Source: Escherichia coli (GTDB lineage: Bacteria; Pseudomonadota; Gammaproteobacteria; Enterobacterales; Enterobacteriaceae). From it: a stretch of 64,000 nt of DNA. Position numbers and translations under genes: made by a program. Below are positions 11,478 to 12,686 of this stretch, in pieces (position 1 is the stretch's first letter; each line of letters begins with the position of its first letter). The stretch is taken from assembly GCF_044324875.1 (NCBI RefSeq), contig NZ_CP172185.1. The stretch is one strand, 5' to 3'. The notes under the pieces are model-generated. The model was given only the letters and a program-made list of their open reading frames with translations. It was not told the origin of the DNA and searched no databases.

Positions 11478-12608
11478 TTTATAGTCCTTAATTTATAAAA
11501 CTCACAGGAAGAGGAAATTATGTAAATACTGAGAGAACATAAACGCCGTACCACGGCATTAATAAACGAAGTAAACCAGCAGCACAGACACCCTGATAAA
11601 ACTGTTTTGTATTACCGCATCGCTGTAACAAGGTAATACTTCAGAATTCAGTGAGGCTCTCTTAAACAGAGGACCAGTAAGAATTACAATGGTAAAAACA
11701 CACCTCATAGAATTGAGTTTAAGGAAGCACCATTCACTCAACCTGACATTCACAAAAGTCAGTACCAGGTGGCCTCAGGTAACATCGCTATTAATATTAT
11801 CCTGCCATTAAGTAAAAACAGAAACTCTGTGAGGAAGTCTCACCAATATTTGACCAGTAGCATAAAGAATAACGATATGAGAGATACGCCCACACCAGAG
11901 ATGATTACCCCATACAAAAAGATAATATTTATTAATACCACCGCACCTCAATAGACTAATAACACACTAATAGCGTTTTGGTACACACTTAACACTAACT
12001 ATGCACCAGACACATACTCAGGATTAACATTCCCAACATTTATGGTACTCTCAAAGAGTATAATTCACCACACAGGTAAACTCTCACACCAGTAGTATGG
12101 AGATAATGCTGTACACATACTTACAGAGTAAAGTGTACAGTTAGCATACAGTGGCGAGCAGACATTACAACATAAAGACATAAGATAGCATAATAAGAAC
12201 ATAACAAAACTCCCACTAATAATACTAATTAACCTTAATTCTTTTTTGAACAGGAAATCAACATTGCTCCAGACCTCTTCAGGTCATACACTTTTGTATT
12301 GGATGTTCAATGTGTACTTCTGCACAAACAAAAAAATAAAACCCGCAAAATAAAATATCAGCCCCAAAAATACAGCGTGAAACACCACGTTATGGATATG
12401 TTTTCATATCACCAGAAGCATATTTCACACATACAATACAGAAACAATTCATCATATAATCAGGGTTACTGTTCACTCCTCTCGGTTATCCGCGAGACGA
12501 TAAAACATGACACTAATCACAAAAACGAGAGATAGTATTTGCGAAATATAAACAACATAAAAATCAATGCGTTGCGATTTTTTATTTTTTCAGACATGCA
12601 TGCCCCCT

Positions 12609-12644
12609 CTGCTATTGTTGCTAGCCGGCTAGCAACAATAGCAG
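12609..12644. repeat. Perfect 36-bp palindrome (18-bp arms)
   Basis: ctgctattgttgctagcc|ggctagcaacaatagcag; arms are exact reverse complements; ~45 bp beyond the stop of the 607-aa gene. Confidence 0.8.
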
Positions 12645-12686
12645 GGATATACAAACATCGGATGCCAAAAACACGTTCCGATAATA

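Follow-up and report, generated by a model that had tools for sequence, protein, structure and literature searches.

Introduction

The closest described relatives of the locus reported here are SpLE1 of Escherichia coli O157:H7 Sakai and the yfjI–yfjJ region of CP4-57 in K-12, in which genes of the AlpA-type helix-turn-helix (HTH), DUF3987/YfjI and Gp2/YfjJ families occur in the same order. In SpLE1, an 820-bp gap separates ECs1303 from ECs1304 (1377415–1378234), and the next gene, ECs1305, encodes the insertion sequence (IS)-excision enhancer IEE, which RefSeq also names “TOTE conflict system archaeo-eukaryotic primase.” We analyzed a 64,000-nucleotide stretch of E. coli DNA (contig NZ_CP172185.1, referred to as the window), in which positions 11478–12686 form the exact gap between the start codon of a gp2/YfjJ-type gene and the stop codon of an orphan gene encoding 607 amino acids. 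The ECs1303–ECs1304 gap is directly homologous to positions 11478–12261, with about 79–87% identity, and near the distal end of this homologous part lies a conserved 22-bp element. The window differs in this respect from K-12 CP4-57, whose yfjI–yfjJ gap is merely 152 bp long and lacks the 22-bp element.

The gap upstream of gp2 is non-coding and strand-skewed

The first-pass annotation of the window had described a kilobase rich in A and C on its plus strand, lying between a Gp2-like gene and the orphan gene and holding no open reading frame (ORF) longer than about 80 codons. Its coordinates agree exactly with the flanking ORFs at 10914–11477 and 12687–14510, and its label for the left gene corresponds to the RefSeq name “inovirus-type Gp2 protein” in identical DNA. 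The base-skew profile bore out the compositional claim. As counted on the plus strand, 11478–12686 contains 466 A, 261 C, 181 G and 301 T (38.5, 21.6, 15.0 and 24.9%, respectively; GC 36.6%), giving an A+C content of 60.1%, a GC skew of −0.18 and an AT skew of +0.22. Only 0.06% of all 1209-nt windows of the 64 kb (mean A+C 51.6%, S.D. 3.0%) attain this value; the highest of them, at 60.3%, overlaps the stretch, and the 400-nt maximum of 63.8% begins at 11835. Of the 21 segments in the window that lack ORFs and measure at least 150 nt, the stretch is also the most strongly skewed, the remaining ones having 47–57% A+C. The two runs quoted as examples, acacactaat and caccacacaggtaaactctcacacc, were located at ∼11961 and ∼12067. 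The longest internal ORF has 78 codons (TTG start, 12299–12535, plus strand), the next one encodes 64 amino acids from a GTG start, and ORFs starting with ATG do not exceed 49 amino acids. The stretch is real, non-coding and strand-skewed.

The stretch combines a backbone spacer with the flank of a second module

The first 784 nt of the stretch (11478–12261) match an unannotated gap upstream of gp2 in 1,585 of 5,426 E. coli genomes (∼29%), at 71–90% identity. The full 1209 nt recur, identical or nearly so, in ∼155 complete E. coli genomes, none of which annotates them; likewise, no matching RefSeq genome (1,508–1,589 records) carries an annotation of the region. The canonical loci that we retrieved have a constant order, namely P4-type integrase, AlpA-family HTH protein, DUF3987/YfjI, a gap of 820–1054 bp, gp2 and variable cargo, which consists of IEE or other genes; iee is present in many of the islands examined, and an alpA-family regulator is encoded near the gap in every retrieved locus. 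Phage collections gave no match to the stretch, and the nine matches in plasmid collections were all E. coli records with the same island, several of them far beyond ordinary plasmid size (one of 4.8 Mb). We take the stretch, with somewhat better than even confidence, to be an expanded intergenic spacer in the backbone of an SpLE1/IEE-like integrative island of the P4/CP4-57 type.

In BLAST comparisons with O157 and UTI89-type loci, 12261 is the last position homologous to the SpLE1-type gap. The rest of the stretch (12262–12686, minus strand) is the 3′ flank of the module that contains the 607-amino acid gene; it is unrelated to the canonical yfjI–gp2 gap and occurs in ∼200 E. coli genomes only, always beside the orphan gene. 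This module comprises the 607-amino acid gene on the minus strand and alpA and a DUF3987 gene on the plus strand, and a 69%-identical version with the same layout is found in O104:H4 islands. Unlike SpLE1, then, the window has a different int-proximal module in inverted order (607-amino acid gene, alpA, DUF3987) and an additional 425 nt of unrelated non-coding DNA. We rejected a simple inversion of the canonical yfjH–alpA–yfjI segment, as the identity of the two modules is 74% in alpA and close to nil in the rest; the diverged O104:H4 island of the same order also argues for a different module. As judged from these homologies, the stretch is a mosaic in which two modules meet at 12261/12262. 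Going beyond what the first-pass annotation saw, it is a two-module composite, its larger part is a backbone spacer present in about 29% of E. coli genomes, and this spacer has a conserved 22-bp element at its distal end.

A 22-bp element is conserved upstream of gp2 across Enterobacterales

Alignment of 11 gap variants gave the block structure of the spacer, in which the best-conserved block, Block B (12196–12261, minus strand), shows a column identity of 95–98% among E. coli variants and ends at the module junction. Block B retains 84% identity over 49 nt in loci L062 and L063, though Gp2 there is 63% identical. Its core is the 22-bp cis element 5′-AATTAAGGTTAATTAGTATTAT-3′ (minus strand, 12240 to 12219), in which the palindrome AATTAA-GG-TTAATT precedes a −10-like TATTAT. 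The element is unique in the window, and 100 shuffles yielded no match with three or fewer mismatches.

Searching genomes with a Gp2 protein alignment gave 43 loci from other Enterobacterales; at this distance it is the 22-bp element that is conserved, and not the skewed gap. We found 20 matches to the element in 38 distant loci, compared with 1.7 expected. With no more than four changes in 18 positions, it lies upstream of the gp2 homologues and in the same orientation, with Gp2 proteins that are 33–58% identical, and the genera concerned are Citrobacter, Edaphovirga, Budvicia, Brenneria, Lelliottia, Serratia, Yersinia, Buttiauxella, Enterobacter, Kluyvera and Cedecea. The cross-genus form reads AATTAAGGTTAATT(A/G)GTATTAT. 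Conservation sets in sharply at the 5′ edge of the element, and the surroundings are not conserved between clades.

The distance from the element to the ATG of gp2 is 89–167 nt in 16 distant loci and 566–1009 nt in six further loci. Long distances are found in the Escherichia lineage (566–1000 nt; ∼740 nt in the window), in L062 and L053 (∼1,000 nt) and in the Budvicia locus L035 (1,009 nt). The long spacers of L062/L053 and of L035 are non-homologous beyond the element, and since the long spacers are mutually non-homologous, the expansions are lineage-specific, having occurred in three lineages. Comparison of these loci indicates that the skewed stretch arose by lineage-specific growth of the interval between gp2 and its deeply conserved cis element.

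The skew equals that of silent sites in co-oriented genes

All 11 gap variants have an A+C content of 58.7–60.1% on the strand equivalent to the plus strand of the window, and the O104:H4 gap has 59%. As the skew is common to all homologous gaps, it is a property of the element family and not an accident of one copy. Between the 22-bp element and the ATG, the gp2-sense (minus) strand contains 39.5% T, 21.6% G, 23.3% A and 15.5% C, that is, 61% G+T. At fourfold-degenerate sites, the G+T fraction of the sense strand is 0.63–0.66 in gp2, 0.62–0.64 in IEE, 0.62 in yfjI and 0.61 in the 607-amino acid gene, as against 0.61 in the spacer, although the bulk G+T of these genes is only 0.49–0.54. The asymmetry had been put forward in the first-pass annotation as one that should set the gap apart from flanking DNA; this was borne out in bulk composition and failed at the fourfold-degenerate sites of the co-oriented flanking genes, where the same skew is found. 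Because the spacer has the skew of fourfold sites in co-oriented genes, we read it as weakly constrained DNA of silent-site composition, and the skew looks like the composition of the strand, visible for lack of an encoded protein. Skew alone should thus not be taken for a sign of a special element; it can appear wherever non-coding DNA has the silent-site composition of its transcription unit. As to its cause, a mutational one may be considered. Francino and Ochman reportedly attributed such asymmetry to C-to-T deamination of the non-template strand, which predicts an excess of T over A and of G over C on the sense strand. The skew has this direction on the gp2-sense strand, as would be expected from cytosine deamination of a strand that is non-template or otherwise single-stranded.

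Third-position-like composition would also suit a decayed gene, which the first-pass annotation had proposed as one origin of the stretch. The spacer would then be an eroded remnant, for example of a minus-strand gene for a hydrophobic small protein that once stood between the promoter element and gp2. The minus-strand frames do give hydrophobic peptides rich in Cys, Leu and Val, and in locus L008 a 75-amino acid ORF runs up to the gp2 start; moreover, the 89–167 nt that separate element and ATG in relatives mean that ∼600 nt were gained. However, hydrophobic translations are an expected by-product of a strand rich in T and G. The six-frame translations gave one spurious Pfam match, below cut-off at 18.8 bits, and none to PHROGs; large protein databases were not searched. 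No ORF is kept across the variants, in which single-base indels break the frames, and autocorrelation revealed no dominant 3-nt periodicity, the lag-2 signal exceeding that at lag 3. A gene remnant is therefore very improbable in our judgment.

A predicted HUH protein and a candidate control site

Gp2 belongs to the uncharacterized YagK/YfjJ family. Across 21 homologues, the invariant residues of Gp2 are H87 and H89 (HxH), Y157 and K160 (YxxK) and R181–R185 of a C-terminal RGRPR. The AlphaFold (AF2) model of Gp2 has a predicted local distance difference test score (pLDDT) of 90.5, and its best Foldseek matches in the PDB are the nuclease/origin-binding domains of parvovirus NS1 and of adeno-associated virus (AAV) Rep, with weak template modeling (TM) scores of 0.36–0.40. 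Pfam REP_ORF2-G2P and YagK_YfjJ_C match the protein below cut-off only, and a PDB sequence search with the Gp2 profile returned nothing significant; some homologues are named “rolling circle replication-associated protein” by NCBI. Gp2 is thus predicted to be an HUH protein with a Rep-like fold and an AT-hook-like tail. RGRPR is presumably the core of an AT-hook. It lies on a tail that is modeled with low confidence and is probably disordered, and such a motif suggests that Gp2 binds AT-rich DNA, for instance the AATTAA arms of the element, in the minor groove.

From these features, two candidate roles arise for the 22-bp element, namely an operator/promoter and a site on DNA that Gp2 targets. 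In the explanation that we favor, it would control the gp2 unit, as an operator that overlaps a weak or extended −10 promoter and is plausibly bound by the AT-hook-like tail of Gp2 itself. The part of the stretch that always travels with the gp2(-iee) unit (11478–12261) would carry this site at its far end, and 11478–12218 would be a long, largely unconstrained untranslated leader of a minus-strand transcript. In the Escherichia lineage, the interval between element and gene would have grown to about 0.57–1.0 kb, and to ∼740 nt in the window, and 12262–12686 would be the 3′ flank of the other int-proximal module, joined by recombination right beside the element. We lean toward this reading as a whole. 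TATTAT, which resembles a −10 hexamer, is conserved, and a TGn in one clade (TTGGTATTAT) gives the extended form TGGTATTAT.

Several points weigh against this reading. A sigma-70 consensus scan did not call the 22-bp element a promoter, no −35 hexamer is conserved, and the invariance of the element is above that of ordinary promoters. The leader at 11478–12218 is putative. With respect to the skew, the other ORF-free segments of the window, at 47–57% A+C, limit an unmasked background to the strand of this element and do not let it extend to E. coli intergenic DNA at large, and codon preference also contributes to the composition of fourfold sites. In addition, two genes of opposite orientation, hyp (0.415, locus L002) and alpA (0.40, window), follow the skew of the DNA strand and not that of their own sense strand, which fits replication or single-stranded DNA (ssDNA) asymmetry better than transcription.

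The last of these points, together with the properties of Gp2, raises the question of whether the element is an origin. It would then be the binding or nick site of the HUH protein Gp2, and the skew would record repeated ssDNA exposure in rolling-circle-type replication or mobilization of the excised island or of gp2 plus cargo. HUH Rep origins, as in rolling-circle replication (RCR) plasmids, Ff gpII, parvovirus/AAV and circular Rep-encoding ssDNA (CRESS-DNA) viruses, likewise have a short conserved inverted-repeat element upstream of, and co-oriented with, an HUH/YxxK gene, and a gene for a predicted HUH/Tyr nuclease, which such origins require, is adjacent here, with motifs invariant in the 21 homologues. 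The HxH and YxxK motifs, the predicted Rep-like fold and the rolling-circle names of the homologues point the same way. Like Rep nick regions, the element adjoins the gene, always points the same way and is conserved far above its surroundings, and a distance to the gene that ranges from 89 to ∼1,000 nt is better tolerated by an origin than by a promoter. The skew follows the DNA strand in the two genes of opposite orientation, and the plus strands of ssDNA phages are T-rich and C-poor, like the sense strand here. The TAGTATTAT of the element resembles TAGTATTAC, the nonanucleotide of circoviruses and nanoviruses; this is a lead only.

Unlike HUH Rep origins, however, the element offers no stable stem-loop: the two arms of AATTAA-GG-TTAATT are 2 nt apart and pair through A-T alone, which means that the stable hairpin typical of such origins cannot form, and TATTAT has no complementary partner. 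Iterons are absent from the window, the bulk composition of the gp2 gene is unskewed, the Foldseek TM scores are low, and the Pfam Rep match is below cut-off. The element, moreover, lies in an integrated island and not in an autonomous replicon. We regard the origin as unlikely. The element and the YfjJ/Gp2 HUH protein would, as a pair, drive rolling-circle-type replication or one-ended mobilization of downstream DNA, a proposal that we consider more doubtful still. If Gp2 did nick the element, this would explain why gp2 always stands at the border between the conserved backbone and variable cargo (IEE, McrBC and zinc-ribbon genes), and the pair would also explain the module junctions beside the element and the ssDNA-type, T-rich and C-poor asymmetry.

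In the distant loci L018, L039 and L015, gp2 lies between genes whose translations, as judged by eye, resemble YfjP (GTPase), YfjQ and YfjR of K-12 CP4-57, and variable cargo that includes a large, seemingly McrB-like P-loop protein; this position suggests a cargo hotspot beside gp2. Exact copies of the 22-mer occur in two related, jumbo phage-like IMG/VR sequences of ∼240 kb (L066, 10736–10757; L067, 6465–6486), where each occupies a short gap between genes, in the opposite orientation to these and with no gp2 homologue nearby.

Under the explanation that we favor, the skewed kilobase itself is of little consequence. What matters is that an unannotated spacer precedes gp2, and often iee, in ∼29% of complete E. 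coli genomes, O157 SpLE1 being one case, and that the 22-bp element and the catalytic residues would provide a handle on the control of gp2-iee and on the role of the HUH/AT-hook proteins of the YagK/YfjJ family.

Satellite-type origins and packaging elements

A replication or packaging element had also been suggested for the gap in the first-pass annotation, and this found no support. The origins of satellites sit directly downstream of a helicase-like or pri-rep gene. The canonical gap is placed in the same way as P4 ori/crr and the origins of Staphylococcus aureus pathogenicity islands (SaPI) and phage-inducible chromosomal islands (PICI), in that the helicase-like DUF3987/YfjI gene is its immediate upstream neighbor. 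In the canonical SpLE1 architecture the gap adjoins yfjI, whereas in the window the DUF3987 gene is elsewhere, at 14875–16421 on the other strand, and points away. Unlike P4, SaPI and PICI origins, neither the window nor the canonical E. coli gaps contain iterons: a search for tandem and direct repeats in the window, the canonical gap and the O104:H4 gap found only direct repeats of two or three copies, at chance level. P4 TGTTCACC repeats and DnaA boxes are absent from the gap and from its canonical E. coli counterparts, and no similarity to phage records was seen.

An iteron-like array that recalls satellite origins is present in L062, a metagenome contig whose Gp2 is 63% identical. Eight TGTAA-type repeats with a strict 13-nt spacing lie there at 1562–1670, directly downstream of the 22-bp element (period 13/26 in TRF); the window and canonical E. 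coli gaps lack such an array. A periodic TGT/TGTAA array was accordingly rejected as the source of the skew.

Functional RNA

The spacer might also act as RNA, either as a minus-strand leader rich in G and U that governs gp2-iee by attenuation or antitermination, or as an unstructured plus-strand antisense RNA rich in A and C. Three terminator-like hairpins lie on the minus strand of the gap (six sites compared with 1.3 expected over the 2.2 kb scanned), and a conserved hairpin at 11542–11560 varies through changes that are compatible with G-U pairing on the plus strand. An alpA-family regulator is always encoded nearby, which allows an analogy, and only that, with antitermination of the AlpA/Q type: AlpA of Pseudomonas aeruginosa acts from a site between −35 and −10, causing read-through of downstream terminators, and has a 21Q-like fold (PMC9371919). 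Described functional residues of that protein are numbered up to 142 (PMC9371919); it is about twice the size of the 86-amino acid AlpA-family protein of the window.

The non-coding RNA proposed in the first-pass annotation did not gain from our searches. Rfam gave nothing at gathering threshold for 11478–12686, and at E≤10 just fragments of small nucleolar RNA, microRNA and CrcZ, with 11–24 bits against thresholds of 40–120. For 14 homologues of the gp2-proximal part of the spacer (Block A), RNAalifold predicted 78 pairs with a covariation term of −0.42 kcal/mol, the power being limited by the 85–90% identity of the set; the few double changes sit in poorly aligned rows. Sliding minimum free energy (MFE) z-scores were mostly between −2.7 and +1 and unremarkable apart from a DNA palindrome described below. 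Block A evolves at the silent-site rate, and the middle part of the spacer is full of indels.

Hfq-dependent small RNAs (sRNAs) of enterohemorrhagic E. coli share with the gap the type of island and an unannotated intergenic location. The Hfq-crosslinked sRNAs of SpLE1 in Sakai are Esr41/EcOnc14 at 1422407–1422451 and others at 1381282, 1397056, 1397649 and 1418246 (PMC4104026, Table S2). Esr41 or another EcOnc sRNA was ruled out for the gap, as no EcOnc coordinate falls inside Sakai 1377415–1378234 (PMC4104026). What the gap lacks, in contrast to the Esr41/EcOnc sRNAs, is a GC-rich terminator ending in a U-tail. The available part of the Sakai RNA-seq/Ribo-seq supplements on intergenic small genes holds no entry for the coordinates of the interval or for the flanking genes ECs1303 and ECs1304 (PMC5597208). 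Taking these results together, we consider a functional RNA improbable.

Other features of the stretch

Block A (11478–11830, minus strand) is the presumed untranslated leader next to gp2 and includes a Shine-Dalgarno AAGGA. Its identity of 85–90% among E. coli, E. albertii and O104:H4 homologues is about that of gp2 fourfold sites (80–93%), so that no excess constraint is evident, and its homologues differ by frame-breaking 1-nt indels. Homologue alignments showed that Block A contains an imperfect 29-bp palindrome, TATTACC...GGTAATA (11610–11638), which is near-perfect in relatives (TATTACCTCATTAC-A-GTAATGAGGTAATA) and has invariant arms ATTACC/GGTAAT.

The variable middle (11831–12195, minus strand) is the part richest in A+C on the plus strand and rich in TGT on the minus strand, where TGT outnumbers ACA by 40 to 7 without periodicity. 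It has 63–69% identity to the other variants, and many indels of 20–35 nt are present in some island variants and absent from others. A putative internal promoter running from 11951 to 11922 (TTGAGG-18-TATTAT) was flagged in the window only; the conserved TTACAG of relatives was rejected as its −35 hexamer, as it matches at two of six positions.

In the flank of the orphan gene, 42 nt past its stop codon, lies a perfect palindrome of 18+18 bp (inverted repeat I2, 36 bp, 12609–12644, 100% complementary), which gave the strongest MFE z-scores of the region (−3.7 and −4.6). Its O104:H4 copy has paired changes in both arms, so that the symmetry is kept. Since there is no T-run after the 18-bp stem on either strand, the palindrome does not qualify as a canonical intrinsic terminator. 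A protein site, a cruciform or an RNA-stabilizing hairpin are candidate roles.

ACCAG/CACCAG occurs in eight copies, Chi-like (CTGGTG) on the minus strand and conserved in part only. Outside the window, the yfjI-proximal 200 nt of most SpLE1-type gaps contain an unannotated minus-strand ORF of 41 amino acids, MPLPCQRCIRKLWYRSVSKYNWCNHYLLLDRVLLRILSALV (for example, L003 at 8792–8917 and L007 at 3775–3900).

Neighboring genes and other parts of the window

On its two sides the spacer is bordered by minus-strand genes, the 187-amino acid gp2/YfjJ-type gene of the ORF list (10914–11477), which lies directly downstream of it, and the 607-amino acid orphan gene (12687–14510), which has no Pfam match and is hypothetical in RefSeq. 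The gene downstream of gp2, at ∼9871–10759, is an IEE homologue that in identical RefSeq DNA (strain PK8277, locus L001) is annotated as a truncated, frameshifted pseudogene, unlike ECs1305 of SpLE1. An IS3-type transposase fragment lies beside it at 9115–9495.

Between the DUF3987 gene and the P4-type integrase gene (19289–20497), the window contains an IS21-family element at ∼16679–19250, which is absent from otherwise identical islands (L001). Its ORFs encode an IstA-like protein of 548 amino acids (16750–18396) and IstB (18170–19168), and its left end has repeated ...GATC..TTTGGCAT... motifs at ∼16630–16760.

Rfam matches at gathering level, unrelated to the spacer, were obtained elsewhere in the window for RtT, Ysr251 (antisense), naRNA4/CssrE and the cspA thermoregulator (20716–20852, 22224–22417, 45705–45783 and 56466–56888). 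On the minus strand at 1273–7841, where GC is 55–61%, a LacI-family regulator (6831–7841) and a glycoside hydrolase family 36 (GH36) α-galactosidase (4611–6737) are encoded in what looks like a raffinose-utilization cluster; strain PK8277 has O-antigen-type glycosyltransferase, glf and ABC-transporter genes in its place.

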